Shown: piece after piece, positions 47,692 to 58,409 of the stretch | Layout: each line of letters starts with the position of its first letter | How positions within the stretch are numbered: position 1 is the stretch's first letter | Translations under genes and position numbers: made by a program | Assembly (NCBI RefSeq): GCF_003334785.1 | Contig: NZ_QOWV01000005.1 | DNA length: 64,000 nt | Direction: 5' to 3' (one strand) | From: Escherichia coli | Lineage (GTDB): Bacteria; Pseudomonadota; Gammaproteobacteria; Enterobacterales; Enterobacteriaceae | The notes under the pieces: generated by a model | What the model saw: only the letters and a program-made list of their open reading frames with translations | Database searches by the model: none | What the model was told of the DNA's origin: nothing

Positions 47692-49170
47692 TTACGCATT
47701 CGACCAGCTCTGGATCGAATCCACATTCCCCAATTCCCCATGCATCACTTCATACGATTTTTTCAGGATCACATCAGTATGTTTGGTTAGGTCTTTGAAA
47801 ATGCCTTTATTCATCGCGTCGTAGCGTTTGGCATTGCTCTCAATCGGTATAAAGATATCTTTCACGCGAACCATGTTATCGACAGCCGTTGCGTAATCCG
47901 GGTATAGCCCCAGACCTACCGCTGTATTAATCGCTGCCCCCAGGCTTGCACAACCGTTAATGGCGTTACGTCGTGCCGGAAGGTTGAACACGTCGGCAAA
48001 AATCTGCATAAACAGATCGCTGTTCGAACCGCCGCCAGTAATGATCACATGCTTCGCAAAGTGATTCATTTCATTACACATATTGTCGTAATTGTTCTTC
48101 AGCGTCAGCGCCACGCTTTCCAGTATCGAACGATATATCCATGCGTAATCCATGCTGGAATCAAAGCCGATCATAATCCCGCGTTTGTACGGTTCCCACG
48201 GATTGGTCAGCCAGTCCAGCACCGTCATCAGACCATTACAGCCTGGCGGCACACAAGAAGCTTTTTTGTTGAGTAAATCTTCCGGTGAAAGATCCTGCGC
48301 CCTGGCATCCTGAATTAACGACTCGCCTAGCATGTCGCGCAGCCAGCTCACCGTCCACATGCCTTTGCGAATACCGTAACCTTCATACAGCAATGTTTGC
48401 GGAATAGAAGACATAATCGGCCAGTACGCTACTGGATCTTTCGGCAGTGCTTTGCCGTTCATCATCAATGCGATGTAAGTGCCAAGAGAAATTACCGCCG
48501 TTTCATCATCCAGTAATCCGGCCCCCAGAGCTTCTACCGGTTTATCACTGGTGGTACAAACAACCGGCAGTCCTGCCGGGAAATGTGTCGCCAGTGCGGC
48601 TTGTGGTGTGATATGTCCGAGGACGGTGCCAGGCATTTGCACATCAAACAGCATATGACGGGGGATATTAAACTTATCCATTACCGCAGCATCTTCGCTC
48701 CATGCCCAGCTCTTATAATCCACCGGCCACTGACCAAAATAGTTGGCGATATTGTCTTTAAACTCGCCGGTTAAGCGATGCGTCAGATAACCCGAAAAAG
48801 AGGTGACATATGCCACGTCAGGGTTAGTGTGTTCGTAAGGGCGTGTAACGCGTGCATCCTGCCAGCTAATCAACGGCGCAGCAGGCGTGCCATCGGCTTT
48901 CAATAACGCACGGCAGCAACGGATGGATCCCAGACCAATACCGACAATATCTTCTTTATTCCCGGCAAACTGACTCATCAAATCGTGACCGGCAAAACAT
49001 AATGATGCCCATAAATCGTCGTCAGGATGTTCTGCAGTATCGGCATCTGGCGTGTGCATCGGCTGTAATAAGCCTTTGCCTTCGCAAACCACGTTACCTT
49101 CCAGATCGTACATCACCACTTTTGTGCTCTGACTTCCGCCATCAATCCCTATGATGTATTTTTTCGACAT
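47692..49170 (-). CDS. ygcE: FGGY-family carbohydrate kinase YgcE
   Basis: 492 aa; sugar-kinase N-terminus MSKKYIIGIDGGSQSTK. Confidence 0.85.
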   Translation of the reverse strand: MSKKYIIGIDGGSQSTKVVMYDLEGNVVCEGKGLLQPMHTPDADTAEHPDDDLWASLCFAGHDLMSQFAGNKEDIVGIGLGSIRCCRALLKADGTPAAPLISWQDARVTRPYEHTNPDVAYVTSFSGYLTHRLTGEFKDNIANYFGQWPVDYKSWAWSEDAAVMDKFNIPRHMLFDVQMPGTVLGHITPQAALATHFPAGLPVVCTTSDKPVEALGAGLLDDETAVISLGTYIALMMNGKALPKDPVAYWPIMSSIPQTLLYEGYGIRKGMWTVSWLRDMLGESLIQDARAQDLSPEDLLNKKASCVPPGCNGLMTVLDWLTNPWEPYKRGIMIGFDSSMDYAWIYRSILESVALTLKNNYDNMCNEMNHFAKHVIITGGGSNSDLFMQIFADVFNLPARRNAINGCASLGAAINTAVGLGLYPDYATAVDNMVRVKDIFIPIESNAKRYDAMNKGIFKDLTKHTDVILKKSYEVMHGELGNVDSIQSWSNA

Positions 49171-49196
49171 GATTTTTCTCCTGTAATTTTCCTGGC

Positions 49197-50474
49197 TTAC
49201 TTGCTGCTAGCCATTGCGGGGGCGCTATCAGCAGTACGAATTTTTTGGAACAGCAAAAAGGTAAAGACAATCACCATGCCAAGCGCCGCCATGCCCATCA
49301 GCCACATATTGCGGTAGGCTTCTGCAGCGGGCAGGGTGTCTTGCCAGTGGCCGATAATTGGGTAAACGAAGACATCCGGCAGGAATCCAATCACCGAACA
49401 AATACCTACCGTGGTGCCCATAATGTAAGACGGTGTTCTCGCTTCGCCAGGGCAGGCCCAGTACAGCCCGCGTGAGGCGTAACAGGTGAATCCCAGCAGT
49501 AAAATCAGGCCAATCCCCATCGCGACCGATTGCGGGTTAGAGTTCGTGACGAGCAGGGCAGTTAACGTCAGCAGGCCGAGTACGGAAAGGATTTGGATCA
49601 CGCGGGTAGGGGATTTCACTTTGCTGTAGGTGGTGATTATGCCGCCAAGTGGGCCGCACAGCGCGCGGAATATTTTGTTGATCACAATCCCCATGTAGCT
49701 CGCCGCCACCAGCGACATGCCATACATTTCGGTCAGATAGTTGGTGGAGTAACTCAGAATGGCGTAGATGGTGAAGACGCCAAAAATCACCATGCTGCAA
49801 TACCAGGTGGTGCTGATACGCAAAACGGCCAGGATGTCGCTAAGCTGGAATGACTGTTTTTCTTCGTTATTGGCACTGCGCAGGTTGTTGTTATCGCTAA
49901 CAAAAAACCAGCACAGAATCCCCAACAAGATGTAAACCACACTATAGATGATAATGACCGTTTTCAGGCTGGTGCTGTCATCCGGTGCAAAGCGAGAAAA
50001 GACCCACATGGTAAACACCGCCAGCGACATTACACCGACGCCGCGCAGCCCTTCCATCCAGCCCATAATTTTCCCTTGCTCGCTATGATCGCCAAGCAAC
50101 GATGCAGCTTTAATCGACACCGACCACAGCATTAAAATCGTCGTTATCGCAAAGGCGATCTGAATACAGAGCATTACCCACAGCGGTGGATACGTTGCCA
50201 TTAACAGACCCAGTAATCCGGTAATGATCATCGCGGAAGTAATCATTTTGCGGTGTGAAAATTTATCGGCAATAACGCCGCTGGGGGCATAAAGAATAAT
50301 GGCCGCAATACCAAAGGTACTCATTATTAAACCTATCTCGGTATTGCTGAATCCCATAAATTTCGCCATGGGAATTTGATAAATATAACGTAAATAAGCC
50401 AGGTCGAAACTAACGCCGCCGCTAAAACTAATTATCGCGAGGGTTATCCAACGGCGATATGAGTTGTGTTGCAT
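49197..50474 (-). CDS. yqcE: MFS transporter YqcE
   Basis: 425 aa polytopic MFS protein; 26 bp upstream of ygcE on the same strand. Confidence 0.8.
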   Translation of the reverse strand: MQHNSYRRWITLAIISFSGGVSFDLAYLRYIYQIPMAKFMGFSNTEIGLIMSTFGIAAIILYAPSGVIADKFSHRKMITSAMIITGLLGLLMATYPPLWVMLCIQIAFAITTILMLWSVSIKAASLLGDHSEQGKIMGWMEGLRGVGVMSLAVFTMWVFSRFAPDDSTSLKTVIIIYSVVYILLGILCWFFVSDNNNLRSANNEEKQSFQLSDILAVLRISTTWYCSMVIFGVFTIYAILSYSTNYLTEMYGMSLVAASYMGIVINKIFRALCGPLGGIITTYSKVKSPTRVIQILSVLGLLTLTALLVTNSNPQSVAMGIGLILLLGFTCYASRGLYWACPGEARTPSYIMGTTVGICSVIGFLPDVFVYPIIGHWQDTLPAAEAYRNMWLMGMAALGMVIVFTFLLFQKIRTADSAPAMASSK

Positions 50475-50497
50475 ATCGTATTCCCATTTGTAATAGA

Positions 50498-56870: not shown

Positions 56871-56886
56871 AAATTATCCTTATTAT

Positions 56887-57147
56887 TTATCCAAAGCGGT
56901 AGGTGATGCCGAATCCGGAAGGCGGATAGCGCCACTGTTGTAGTGTTGATTCGTCGCACAGCAAACGGCAGGTGCCACACTCCAGGCAACTGCGATAGTC
57001 AATACGTAAGTTACCTTCCGGTGTGAGCGAAAAAAGACCTGCCGGACAGGCGTTAATCAACCGTTCTGCCGTCTGGCGCTCAACGGAGTCAGCCGGAACA
57101 ATGTGCGGCGCATCAGCAACGCGCCAGAGATTACGGGCTACAGACAT
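56887..57147 (-). CDS. ygcO: Ferredoxin-like protein (FixX-like) YgcO
   Basis: ORF to 57183; start MSVARNLW at 57147 gives 86 aa; CxxCxxC cluster (CLECGTCRLLC). Confidence 0.75.
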   Translation of the reverse strand: MSVARNLWRVADAPHIVPADSVERQTAERLINACPAGLFSLTPEGNLRIDYRSCLECGTCRLLCDESTLQQWRYPPSGFGITYRFG

Positions 57148-58409
57148 CGCAGACTCCTGATAACATCGCCCGCCAGATGCCACAGGCCGTGACGACGTAA
57201 ATGATGCCAGAATAACTGGCGCAGCGGTGGAACAGGTTTATCACCCTGATCCCATAAATCGCGGGAAATATCCTGCATTAACGCAGGCCACGTACGGTAC
57301 CATCCCGGGCGTTGCAAAAGCGCCGGAACATGCTGATAACGCTGTAGAACATCCCACAGCAGGCTGCGCTCTACGTTGTGATGATAAAGCGGAAACAGAT
57401 TTTGCGGCTCGCGGTGCTGGCAGGCGCTTATCAGCGTTTGTGCCGCCGCCTGCGCGCCAGTCAGCGCCATATCCATGCCGCGCACGGAAATTCCGGTATT
57501 GACGCAACTGCGCAACGCATCGCCCACCAGCAGCCAGCCGTTACCGGCGTATTGCACCGGCATACTGTGCAAGCCACCTTCTGGCACCAGATGCGCACCA
57601 TACTCCAGTGATTCCGTGTTTTTGATAAGCGGGCGCACTGCCGGATGCGCTTTAAAGCGAGTCAGCAGCTCGCTTGCCGGAACACGACTTTGCGTAAGGG
57701 AAGAGAGCGGGCAAACAATCCCTAACGAGAGCGTTTGTTGATTAGTATAAAGAAATGCGCCGCCGGGTAAGTCATCACAGATCCTGCCGCTGAACAGCAA
57801 CGCTGCGCCTTCGTTATTCTCCAGATGAAAACGTTCTTCAATAGCGGATGTTTCCAGCGACAGCACTTCTTTGATCCCCAACGCCATCGCTTCGCCAGCA
57901 GGACGAGCCACTAACCCGTGACGTTCAGCCAGGACGCTGTTGGCACCTTCTGCCAGCACCACATAACGGGCGCGGAGAATATCGTCACCACAAATAACGC
58001 CACAGACTCTGCCGTTTTCTTCATACAGTGCATCCACCGTCGCTCCGGGGATGCATTCGACACCTTCTTTTTCGGCTTCGGCAACCAGCCACGGATCGAA
58101 TCGTGCACGTAATACACTCCAGGATTCACCGCCGGGCTGTAAGCTGGAAAACGTCGTTACGCCATCGGGCGTTAACAGGGAAAGGCTTTCGTGAGTGATG
58201 CGTCGTTCAAGAGGCGCGGTCAGATGAAATTGCGGGAGGAGTTCCGCGAGTGCATGGGTATATAACCGCCCGCCGGAAAGATTTTTGCTGCCGGGGATTT
58301 CAGCGCGTTCCAGTAACAAAACGGATAAACCCGCTCGCGCGCAGCGTAACGCGCAAGCGGTGCCTGCAATACCGGCACCAATAATAATAATGTCGCAGTC
58401 GTCTTCCAT
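57138..58409 (-). CDS. ygcN: FAD-dependent oxidoreductase (FixC / ETF-quinone oxidoreductase-like) YgcN
   Basis: ORF to 58439; start MEDDCDIIIIGAGIAG (FAD-binding GxGxxG) at 58409 gives 423 aa. Confidence 0.8.
   Translation of the reverse strand: MEDDCDIIIIGAGIAGTACALRCARAGLSVLLLERAEIPGSKNLSGGRLYTHALAELLPQFHLTAPLERRITHESLSLLTPDGVTTFSSLQPGGESWSVLRARFDPWLVAEAEKEGVECIPGATVDALYEENGRVCGVICGDDILRARYVVLAEGANSVLAERHGLVARPAGEAMALGIKEVLSLETSAIEERFHLENNEGAALLFSGRICDDLPGGAFLYTNQQTLSLGIVCPLSSLTQSRVPASELLTRFKAHPAVRPLIKNTESLEYGAHLVPEGGLHSMPVQYAGNGWLLVGDALRSCVNTGISVRGMDMALTGAQAAAQTLISACQHREPQNLFPLYHHNVERSLLWDVLQRYQHVPALLQRPGWYRTWPALMQDISRDLWDQGDKPVPPLRQLFWHHLRRHGLWHLAGDVIRSLRCL

Follow-up and report, generated by a model that had tools for sequence, protein, structure and literature searches.

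The ygc cluster of Escherichia coli (yqcE, ygcE, ygcW, ygcU, ygcS, ygcR, ygcQ, ygcN, ygcO and ygcP), found at positions 47692-58409 of a 64,000-nucleotide stretch of contig NZ_QOWV01000005.1, which is called the window below, resembles in its parts several described systems. For its regulation, the closest of these is antitermination by GlpP of Bacillus subtilis, where a promoter, a GlpP site and a terminator in the 5' untranslated region (5'-UTR) are present in each of three operons, in addition to catabolite control (PMC9604022, PMC10573289). YgcP belongs to the same PF04309 family as GlpP, whose action on the glpD, glpFK and glpTQ leaders is dependent on glycerol 3-phosphate (G3P), and the layout is the same, with a 5'-UTR terminator before each operon of the regulon plus catabolite control. 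The ygc regulon differs in having a short-chain dehydrogenase (SDR), a non-GlpK kinase of the FGGY family and an enzyme resembling alkyl-dihydroxyacetonephosphate synthase (ADPS) instead of glp genes (no MIP, GlpK-equivalog or GlpD gene was found in the cluster, and no glpF, glpK or glpD in the regulon), in its distinct leader consensus, and in its occurrence in Gram-negative enterics in combination with the cyclic AMP receptor protein (CRP). To our knowledge, no GlpP-type antitermination switch has been described in E. coli. The set of y-genes itself is a known one, and what our analysis adds is a regulatory model with a previously undescribed leader RNA, a core composed of SDR, kinase and ADPS-like enzyme, and a link of this core to quaternary amines in other phyla.

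Two further systems resemble the enzymes of the core. ADPS (also AGPS; PDB entries 4bby and 2uuu), whose catalysis is redox-neutral and biosynthetic and whose N-terminal extension has a lipid/membrane role, shares with YgcU the FAD_binding_4 and cap domains and the Arg, Tyr and His-His-His residues, and this likeness implies a phosphorylated ketone of the dihydroxyacetone phosphate (DHAP) type as substrate and covalent chemistry at flavin N5 for YgcU. However, YgcU is encoded in a catabolic, transporter-linked operon with a dedicated electron transfer flavoprotein (ETF), and its substrate is unlikely to be a long-chain lipid. The routes for tetritols (EryA/EryB of Brucella, and threitol and erythritol utilization in Mycobacterium smegmatis) use an SDR polyol dehydrogenase, an FGGY kinase and a flavoprotein dehydrogenase for the polyol phosphate, and therefore share with the ygc genes the combination of SDR, FGGY kinase and flavoprotein and the logic of making a ketose phosphate. 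Differences are that isomerase and epimerase genes are absent from the E. coli cluster, that its flavoenzyme is of the VAO/ADPS type and not of the GlpD type, and that transporters and regulators are not the same.

The 318-bp region between yqcE and ygcW contains two CRP-consensus sites, found by a pattern search, and two copies of the leader element, as follows.

50499-50561, minus strand: yqcE leader RNA, with the P1 5' strand AUUACU, the AGAG...GAGAAAAG core, the terminator hairpin and U8; its 3' end is 24 nt before the yqcE start codon.
50596-50611, no strand: CRP-consensus site TGTGAGAGTAATCACG, with its centre 42.5 bp before the yqcE leader's first base.
50653-50668, no strand: perfect CRP palindrome TGTGATTACGATCACA, with its centre 43.5 bp before the ygcW leader's first base.
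50704-50768, plus strand: ygcW leader RNA, with the P1 5' strand AGUUACC, AGAGAUAAUGAGAAAGG, a 19-bp terminator hairpin and U9; its 3' end is 24 nt before the ygcW start codon.

When the sequences preceding ygcW orthologues were compared in 80 genomes and several assemblies, a consensus of about 65 nt emerged, 5'-R-UUAC-Y AGAG N3-6 GAGAAAAG UAAY UUCC...loop...GGAAG..GCUUUUCUC U6-9, and the element spans Enterobacterales, Vibrionaceae, Negativicutes, Clostridia and Bacilli. A covariance model built for the leader (R1) found exactly two strong matches in the window, namely the ygcW leader (72.3 bits, E 4e-13) and the yqcE leader (66.9 bits, E 7e-12), and no Rfam 15 family matched at E<=1 across 50499-50768. 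In a terminator scan, a perfect 19-bp hairpin followed by a U-run was detected at 50720-50768, within the ygcW 5' leader. The terminator fold has a free energy of -31.2 kcal/mol (z-score -6.8) in the ygcW leader and -20.7 kcal/mol (z-score -4.0) in the yqcE leader, compared with -6.2 and -1.4 for P1 alone, respectively. Since the terminators are far stronger than P1 alone, termination is taken to be the default, and a trans-acting factor would be needed to prevent it.

P1, the putative antiterminator helix, is formed by pairing of its 5' strand with the GUAA(C/U) segment of the terminator 5' arm. In a 47-sequence alignment of homologues (A2), P1 was paired in 95.4% of cells, against at most 57% in slid controls, and compensatory changes were found at three of its seven pairs (G-C to A-U in 13 sequences, U-A to C-G in four and A-U to G-C in one). 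The terminator helix was 85.7% paired in the same alignment with nine doubly changed pairs, and its recurrent internal mismatch coincides with the best-pairing part of P1. Of 5,426 complete E. coli genomes, 5064 contained the yqcE leader, with at least 99% identity in 5001. No leader motif was found upstream of ygcN. A BLAST search for extra leader copies in E. coli genomes did not link even the two known copies to each other, and thus has no bearing on the regulon outside the window.

In a metagenome scan, most matches to the leader core were yqcE leaders of E. coli, with a few ygcW, ygcU and MttB contexts and no new gene families. The scan also returned a recurrent marine sequence, AGATTACTAGAGGGCACGAGAAAAGTAATTTGAAAATTATC (L088, L098, L109, L112, L117, L120 and others), upstream of an open reading frame (ORF) of 182 amino acids; this sequence matches the core pattern but has no terminator, and is hence probably unrelated. 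In Limnobaculum eriocheiris (L039, 3094-3153), a single symmetric A9-hairpin-T9 element lies between yqcE and the SDR gene and is matched by R1 on both strands without a 5' P1 strand, and may represent a leader variant that is collapsed or bidirectional, if it is not an artefact of the assembly.

In homologues from Firmicutes, the leader element begins a few bases past the -10 box. This position, together with the CRP spacings of 42.5 and 43.5 bp, suggests that the two divergent promoters are of class-II type and, with start sites placed by this reasoning, that each transcript starts at the leader. The CRP site on the yqcE side is conserved upstream of yqcE in other Enterobacterales. For the palindrome on the ygcW side, Footprint-seq has listed acTGTGAttacgaTCACAtta, assigned to ygcW/yqcE, and the Kd was estimated at 1.7 nM (PMC12871828); this site had earlier been predicted by PhyloScan, and yqcE-ygcE has been reported as Crp-activated and added to the Crp-activated regulon (PMC8085971). 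An earlier reading of this DNA from its letters only (hereafter the sequence-only reading) had noted that no regulatory logic was assigned to the cluster; a concrete one can now be proposed from the two CRP sites and the two terminator/antiterminator leader copies, with the following protein as the reader of the RNA.

56295-56870, minus strand: ygcP, GlpP-family (G3P_antiterm) protein, last gene of ygcN-O-P and proposed antiterminator.

YgcP matches PDB entry 3kts, which has the G3P_antiterm fold, over residues 11-184 (E 1.2e-27), and PF04309 was detected in all YgcP homologues. An R1 match was present at every locus encoding a YgcP orthologue (35 loci plus the window, 36/36) and in just 3 of 24 loci without YgcP. 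Two of these three exceptions are on short contigs, and the third, Serratia microhaemolytica, encodes YgcP on another contig. The leader motif was absent from loci that use a GntR or sigma-54 regulator instead. Because the motif precedes many operons of the cluster, including the SDR operon, ygcU, the operon of transporter (major facilitator superfamily, MFS) and kinase, BCCT genes and MttB operons, the leader defines a regulon, and its co-occurrence with YgcP suggests that YgcP probably reads this RNA as an antiterminator. For comparison with classical GlpP, three loci from assemblies (L206, L207 and L209) were used, where GlpP homologues 33-43% identical to YgcP adjoin MIP, GlpK-like (FGGY) and G3P-dehydrogenase-type (DAO) genes; one of them (L206) has the P1/terminator layout and a CUAGAGA..GAGAG core before the G3P dehydrogenase-type gene.

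The two hairpins might alternatively be ordinary elements such as insulating terminators, mRNA stabilisers or REP-like sequences, with YgcP acting elsewhere or being inactive. Intrinsic-terminator-like hairpins are indeed common (28 in 12 kb, compared with 15 expected, in the terminator scan), and the stability of P1 alone does not exceed that of shuffled sequence. We nevertheless consider this alternative improbable, since the 65-nt element is kept in full from E. coli to Clostridia and Bacilli, with its 5' strand and the unpaired AGAG..GAGAAA core, is always placed between a promoter and a cluster gene and tracks the YgcP orthologue, and since ygcP has the lowest ratio of nonsynonymous to synonymous substitution rates (dN/dS) of the ten genes.

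The regulon is built around three enzymes, the genes of which are as follows.

47692-49170, minus strand: ygcE, FGGY-family kinase of 492 amino acids, second gene of the yqcE-ygcE unit.
50793-51578, plus strand: ygcW, SDR of 261 amino acids, KduD/gluconate-5-dehydrogenase-like.
51648-53102, plus strand: ygcU, FAD-linked enzyme of alkyl-DHAP synthase type, 484 amino acids.

In a tblastn presence/order matrix over 86 loci, the core of YgcW, YgcE, YgcU and YgcP was found to recur across phyla. The SDR, at 65-82% identity, the FGGY kinase, at 42-57%, and YgcU are invariant, and a YgcP-type protein (50-61%) usually comes with them, from Enterobacterales to Clostridia, Bacilli and Desulfobacterales. 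YgcE orthologues adjoin those of YgcW and YgcU in other phyla. The conservation of YgcU is unusually high, its identity to the E. coli protein being 65-75% in Sporomusa, Halobacillus, Desulfobacula, a metagenome-assembled genome (MAG) of SAR324 and actinomycete MAGs.

YgcU has the Pfam architecture FAD_binding_4 + FAD-oxidase_C. In PDB searches its first-ranked match is ADPS, by sequence (2.7e-40) as well as by profile (7.6e-56 with 4bby, where the family ranked second reached 3e-36), and glycolate oxidase, LctD and D-lactate dehydrogenases rank below it. With its AlphaFold model (mean pLDDT 67.6), Foldseek likewise gave ADPS as the first 30 matches. Arg419, Thr568, Tyr578 and His615-617 of ADPS (4bby numbering), which we take to have catalytic roles, align in HMMER with R262, S388, Y398 and H438-440 of YgcU, so that the four positions checked are all kept, one of them as Thr to Ser (T568 to S388), and these YgcU residues are invariant in a 12-sequence cross-phylum alignment (A1, five phyla). 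PDB entries 4bc7 and 4bca carry mutations of Arg419 and Tyr578. The N-terminal extension of ADPS, of about 170 residues, is absent from YgcU (484 amino acids compared with 658, with the alignment starting at ADPS residue 180). We infer that an enolisable -CO-CH2-OPO3 moiety is bound by YgcU, which would act on the carbon next to it.

YgcW scores 350.6 bits with NCBIfam model NF005390, below the cut-off of 369, and also 276 against 339, and is thus not a KduD equivalog; the GolD/DthD family is among its matches. For YgcE, the best NCBIfam matches are XylB (141.8 bits) and autoinducer-2 (AI-2) kinase (136.7 bits), both far below their cut-offs, and the nearest PDB sequence is LsrK. The families nearest to YgcW (KduD and gluconate 5-dehydrogenase) interconvert R-CHOH-CH2OH and R-CO-CH2OH, and the kinases nearest to YgcE phosphorylate the terminal CH2OH of ketoses, which gives a coherent order of steps from a diol to a hydroxy-ketone, then to a 1-substituted DHAP and then to YgcU.

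Outside the Enterobacterales, genes for BCCT carriers, for binding proteins of the OsmF/OpuAC type and for methyltransferases of the MttB superfamily with their corrinoid and pterin partners accompany the core, and in Bacillota MAGs some MttB genes lie in the W-K-U-R-Q operon or behind the same leader. All characterised MttB-family enzymes known to us act on methylamines or quaternary amines. These BCCT, OpuA and MttB contexts speak for an N-methylated cationic group on the substrate of those lineages, and therefore point to a quaternary-amine substrate outside the enterics. A precedent is choline demethylation by MthBCA-MthK of Eubacterium limosum, in which an MttB-family enzyme needs a phosphorylated quaternary amine (PMC12155760). 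The likeness lies in MttB, the genes for which share an operon or the leader with the core in Bacillota MAGs; the MthBCA-MthK system, however, has no SDR, FGGY or ADPS-like genes, its kinase is of another family, and E. coli has no MttB. The module-linked BCCT carriers were located as follows.

L004 6737-8374, L071 11596-13188, L068 16976-18541, L053 7517-9073, L057 16352-18010 and L002 6096-7643: module-linked BCCTs.

These carriers share WT.FYW[ASC]NW[LMF]AWAP in transmembrane helix 8, that is, WANW and not WAWW, with Asn in place of the first Trp of the motif of canonical betaine/carnitine carriers, and a second, unlinked BCCT of Halobacillus keeps this Trp. In sequence the module-linked BCCTs look like a subfamily with a distinct ligand site, and because of the WANW form their ligand class is not simply readable from the motif.

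Several other neighbours were observed. One Alkalihalobacillus locus adds a betaine-aldehyde-dehydrogenase-like gene, a zinc-dependent alcohol dehydrogenase gene and an aspartase-like gene. An APH-family gene beside Alkalihalobacillus YgcU was considered as a pathway member and dropped, being a macrolide phosphotransferase. A proline-racemase/4-hydroxyproline-epimerase-like gene is present in an MttB-OpuA operon of a Bacillota MAG (L078, 10004-11038, minus strand), a tartronate-semialdehyde/sulfolactaldehyde-reductase-like gene upstream of the SDR gene in an actinomycete MAG (L077, 6795-7709, plus strand), and a YghZ-like aldo-keto reductase gene (L048, 1241-2305, minus strand) together with an aldehyde dehydrogenase gene adjoins YgcS in Serratia; the genes at these last three loci may give hints on the substituent or on later steps.

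The sequence-only reading had pictured a polyol or sugar acid handled with a FAD-linked oxidase, and this is probably too simple, since YgcU is closest to ADPS and the module is tied elsewhere to betaine-type transporters and MttB. In a plain polyol or sugar-acid pathway, YgcE would phosphorylate the imported substrate, YgcU would dehydrogenate the phosphate ester like GlpD, EryB or LctD, electrons would pass through YgcRQ and YgcNO to quinone, and YgcW would serve for an isomer or a second oxidation. The gene content fits such a pathway, pairs of SDR and FGGY kinase are typical of tetritol and pentitol routes, with GolD/DthD among the YgcW matches, YgcU also resembles the ETF-dependent LctD and D-lactate/D-2-hydroxyacid dehydrogenases, and the dedicated ETF argues for net oxidation. 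We still think this pathway unlikely, as YgcU scores clearly higher with ADPS than with 2-hydroxyacid dehydrogenases and keeps the HHH loop, the Tyr, the Arg and a Ser for Thr568, the orthologous modules are linked to BCCT, OpuA-type and MttB genes and not to sugar transporters, and several otherwise complete clusters are without ETF.

The remaining genes of the cluster encode transporters and electron-transfer proteins.

49197-50474, minus strand: yqcE, MFS transporter, 425 amino acids.
53124-54533, plus strand: ygcS, MFS transporter, 469 amino acids by longest ORF.
54511-55290, plus strand: ygcR, divergent ETF beta-like subunit.
55287-56147, plus strand: ygcQ, divergent ETF alpha-like subunit.
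56887-57147, minus strand: ygcO, FixX-like ferredoxin, 86 amino acids.
57138-58409, minus strand: ygcN, FixC-like FAD oxidoreductase (ETF:quinone oxidoreductase type).

YqcE is weakly similar to two transporter families, D-galactonate (ACS) and PgtP, and in Photobacterium a 58%-identical YqcE orthologue lies upstream of the kinase, behind its own copy of the leader. YgcS has matches, each of them below cut-off, to the MFS subfamilies aromatic-acid, sugar-porter and organic-cation (TIGR00898, 2.8e-40). While the longest ygcS ORF starts at 53124, K-12 annotates a later start, equivalent to 53196, and a 9-bp GC-rich hairpin, CGGCTTCTCAGGCGAGAAGCCG (53144-53165, plus strand), is found between the ygcU stop and the latter start. 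YgcR and YgcQ are below the ETF beta and ETF alpha thresholds, with best NCBIfam E values of 3e-11 (43 bits, cut-off 350) and 3e-21 (76 bits, cut-off 240), respectively, and the ETF domains of their orthologues were detected at Pfam level only. YgcN (379.8 bits with NF007450, cut-off 466, and 359 bits with the FixC model, cut-off 610) and YgcO (82 bits with NF011993, cut-off 166) are clearly related to FixC and FixX but are not equivalogs.

E. coli FixABCX (carnitine) and YdiQRST have the same four-part set of ETF beta and alpha, FixC-like flavoprotein and FixX-like ferredoxin. Compared with them, YgcR and YgcQ are far more divergent and below all cut-offs, the partner enzyme belongs to the FAD-linked oxidase family and is not an acyl-CoA dehydrogenase, and the ETF and FixCX-like genes are in separate, convergent operons. 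LctBCD of Acetobacterium woodii (7qh2) has, as YgcU does, a GlcD-family flavoenzyme beside ETF subunits, and LctD is among the YgcU PDB matches; the difference is that YgcU is closer to ADPS than to LctD, and that E. coli lacks a second oxidase and a ferredoxin-domain ETF. In the 86-locus matrix, a YgcRQ-type ETF (about 30% identity) accompanies the core in anaerobes, where it follows YgcU, and in E. coli-type clusters, with ygcQ showing the same co-occurrence pattern as ygcR, and it is absent from Halobacillus, Virgibacillus, Alkalihalobacillus and a Serratia/Pantoea/Erwinia variant. Strict anaerobes have an added second GlcD-like oxidase and sometimes a ferredoxin-domain ETF, the YgcRQ-type ETF being placed between YgcU and the second oxidase. 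YgcN, YgcO and YgcS are confined to Enterobacterales versions of the cluster. The electron-transfer branch described by the sequence-only reading is thus present in E. coli, but accessory, as aerobic Bacilli clusters and one Enterobacterales variant do without it.

FixABCX delivers electrons, and the carnitine system is a quaternary-amine setting. By analogy, electrons in the ygc system could flow in the reductive direction, from quinol or another dehydrogenase through YgcNO and YgcRQ to YgcU, which would cleave an alpha-substituted ketone phosphate with release of, for example, trimethylamine or an alcohol and thereby serve as an anaerobic electron sink. The precedent for this is FixABCX, which is the one ETF/FixCX set of E. 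coli with an assignment and on which the anaerobic reduction of carnitine depends (PMC9329746); in addition, the second GlcD-like oxidase next to the YgcRQ-type ETF of strict anaerobes could be the electron donor, and the aerobic Bacilli clusters are without ETF. The direction of electron flow is, however, not readable from sequence, and CRP activation and the kinase step point to carbon catabolism rather than to a pure electron sink. Sites for an anaerobic regulator (FNR, ArcA) were not noticed either, although no search was aimed at them, and we judge a reductive role to be quite unlikely.

The model that we prefer, to which we give an even chance, is a catabolite-repressed, substrate-induced regulon for a small hydrophilic compound having a glycerol-like 1,2-diol end and a substituent on the third carbon. 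In this model, the regulatory part of which is for the most part visible in the sequence while its chemistry is more conjectural, cAMP-CRP would activate the two divergent promoters, and each transcript would start with the approximately 65-nt leader, the default fold of which is the terminator. YgcP, with a phosphorylated intermediate bound to it (what YgcE makes, or a derivative thereof), would stabilise P1, whose 3' strand is shared with the terminator 5' arm, and the AGAG...GAGAAA loop, so that RNA polymerase reads into yqcE-ygcE and ygcW-U-S-R-Q. The compound would be imported by YqcE and/or YgcS, YgcW would convert its penultimate CHOH to a ketone, and YgcE would phosphorylate the terminal CH2OH to give a 1-substituted dihydroxyacetone phosphate. 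YgcU would then use flavin-N5 covalent chemistry at C1, by which the substituent is detached or oxidised away to leave a triose phosphate, and electrons would pass from its flavin to the ETF YgcRQ and through YgcN/YgcO to quinone. In other phyla, the substituent is probably, though speculatively, a trimethylammonium-bearing group, and speculative candidates for the compound are glycerophosphocholine-type diesters, deacylated head groups of betaine lipids and 3-trimethylammonio-propanediol. In E. coli, MFS carriers may take up this same compound or one closely analogous to it.

Several observations weigh against this model. On the side of the RNA, the sequences behind the covariation counts are related to each other, a double constraint acts on the P1 3' strand, which also forms part of the terminator arm, and R1 scored weakly, although at the right place, on the classical leader of L206 (21.5 bits, E 0.005) and gave nothing significant on L207 and L209. 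The link of YgcP to both leader RNAs was drawn from sequence comparison, and its ligand is a conjecture. On the side of the enzymes, the order of the YgcW, YgcE and YgcU steps follows family resemblance, and the AlphaFold model of YgcU is of medium confidence. Since ADPS is redox-neutral, a simple ADPS-like substitution leaves the dedicated ETF unexplained, and net oxidation or a reductive role has to be assumed; the ETF may reflect net oxidative cleavage (with O2 replacing it in aerobes), ETF-fed reductive cleavage, or re-oxidation of over-reduced flavin. As to the substrate, the quaternary-amine link may not carry over to E. coli, which lacks the BCCT and MttB genes. E. coli GlpQ and UgpQ already handle glycerophosphodiesters, and a second route for these compounds therefore needs a rationale.

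A more far-reaching proposal, which we put forward tentatively and regard as rather unlikely, is that the trio of YgcW, YgcE and YgcU represents an unrecognised widespread route stripping the glycerol moiety from deacylated zwitterionic lipid head groups or related quaternary-ammonium diols, such as glycerophosphocholine, glyceryl-trimethylhomoserine of betaine lipids and trimethylammonio-propanediol. C1-O/C1-N cleavage of a substituted DHAP would be catalysed by a catabolic ADPS homologue, under a new class of protein-dependent antiterminator RNA, the reader of which would be a GlpP paralogue sensing the phosphorylated intermediate.

The cluster was found with at least 95% identity in 5061 of the 5426 complete E. 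coli genomes (about 93%). In about 365 genomes the whole cluster is cleanly deleted, with short end remnants (about 5%) kept (e.g. H60 and H61), IS3/IS1397 insertions are present inside the cluster in a few strains (e.g. H47 and H48), and for Shigella and some E. coli there are records of YgcP and YgcU in truncated form. In comparison with Citrobacter amalonaticus, dN/dS was 0.009 for ygcP (the lowest of the ten genes), 0.016 for ygcW, 0.026 for ygcU and 0.027 for ygcE, with a maximum of 0.18 for the ETF alpha subunit, these ratios being approximate because dS is saturated; ygcW, ygcU and ygcP are the most constrained genes. The cluster is thus under strong purifying selection, and the decay that had been raised as a possible refutation was not found. 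A cryptic, non-functional remnant that is never usefully expressed in E. coli would agree with the clean loss in about 7% of genomes, the insertions and truncations and the lack of a phenotype or substrate in the literature searched, but is very improbable in view of the dN/dS values of all ten genes, the intactness in 93% of genomes, the leader identity of at least 99% in 5001 genomes, the high-affinity CRP site and Crp-dependent transcription. The distribution within Enterobacterales is patchy (Citrobacter, some Enterobacter and Klebsiella, Cedecea, Serratia, Rahnella and Pantoea). Within E. coli, the locus is "extended-core" rather than a variable island, by which the term island of the sequence-only reading is qualified, and its G+C content is unremarkable.

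In an ORF listing for the window, the ten ORFs and coordinates of the sequence-only reading were matched exactly, and the region is 100% identical to E. coli chromosomes on which RefSeq annotates ygcE, yqcE, ygcW, ygcU, ygcS, ygcR, ygcQ, ygcP, ygcO and ygcN. Its three transcription units are consistent with gene spacing and overlaps, and its family labels hold at superfamily level in NCBIfam, Pfam and PDB sequence searches, where none of the ten proteins reached a curated NCBIfam equivalog cut-off. Its view of a self-contained set was likewise upheld, since uptake, kinase, flavoprotein, ETF and ETF-quinone-oxidoreductase-like functions are present with their own GlpP-type regulator. By megablast against the 5,426 complete E. 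coli genomes, the cluster was placed on the chromosome in the interval between queE with a CRISPR array and queD-cysJIH. This array, with type I-E repeats GTGTTCCCCGCGCCAGCGGGGATAAACCG, is at 46781-46932 of the window (array equivalent about 46720-47054), between queE and ygcE, and has no cas genes beside it; in a related strain, a second array is located beyond cysH, and the ygc cluster is flanked there by two arrays. A REP/naRNA4-like element (RF02564, 34 bits, below the gathering threshold of 59.5) is found at 56195-56268, minus strand, where ygcQ and ygcP converge. The enterobacterial small RNA STnc370 is weakly matched (31.8 bits, gathering threshold 54, E 0.56) at 44438-44510, minus strand, at the 3' end of the ygcG-equivalent ORF (44483-45424).

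In the full-text literature searched, no substrate or pathway has been assigned to the ygc genes, and in the K-12 RefSeq annotation all ten are still "putative" with no substrate given, as the sequence-only reading had supposed. YgcRQ is listed as the third E. coli ETF set and as "of unknown function" in a 2022 review (PMC9329746), and overexpression of YgcS led to more nicotinamide mononucleotide from nicotinamide (PMC8601175). In March 2026, ygcU was treated as an uncharacterised FAD oxidoreductase, 1.69-fold up with D-serine, and its deletion was without phenotype (PMC13012123). A Citrobacter proteomics paper on quaternary amines was set aside as evidence, because it concerns cai/fix and not ygc.

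With the present analysis, ten contiguous genes of the best-studied bacterium that were without assigned function have been turned into specific, testable hypotheses. The cis-acting leader RNA should report the inducer, and the conservation of the core is accompanied by a short list of coherent substrate classes. If the ADPS-like step is true, it would be a new use of covalent flavin catalysis in catabolism and might fill a missing step in the turnover of choline- and betaine-lipid head groups, which bears on trimethylamine/choline metabolism in the gut and on carbon and nitrogen cycling in marine and hypersaline environments. If the glycerol-stripping route is true, it would be the first bacterial non-oxygenase cleavage of such C1-O/C1-N bonds. 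The pair of leader and YgcP could also serve as an orthogonal inducible part.

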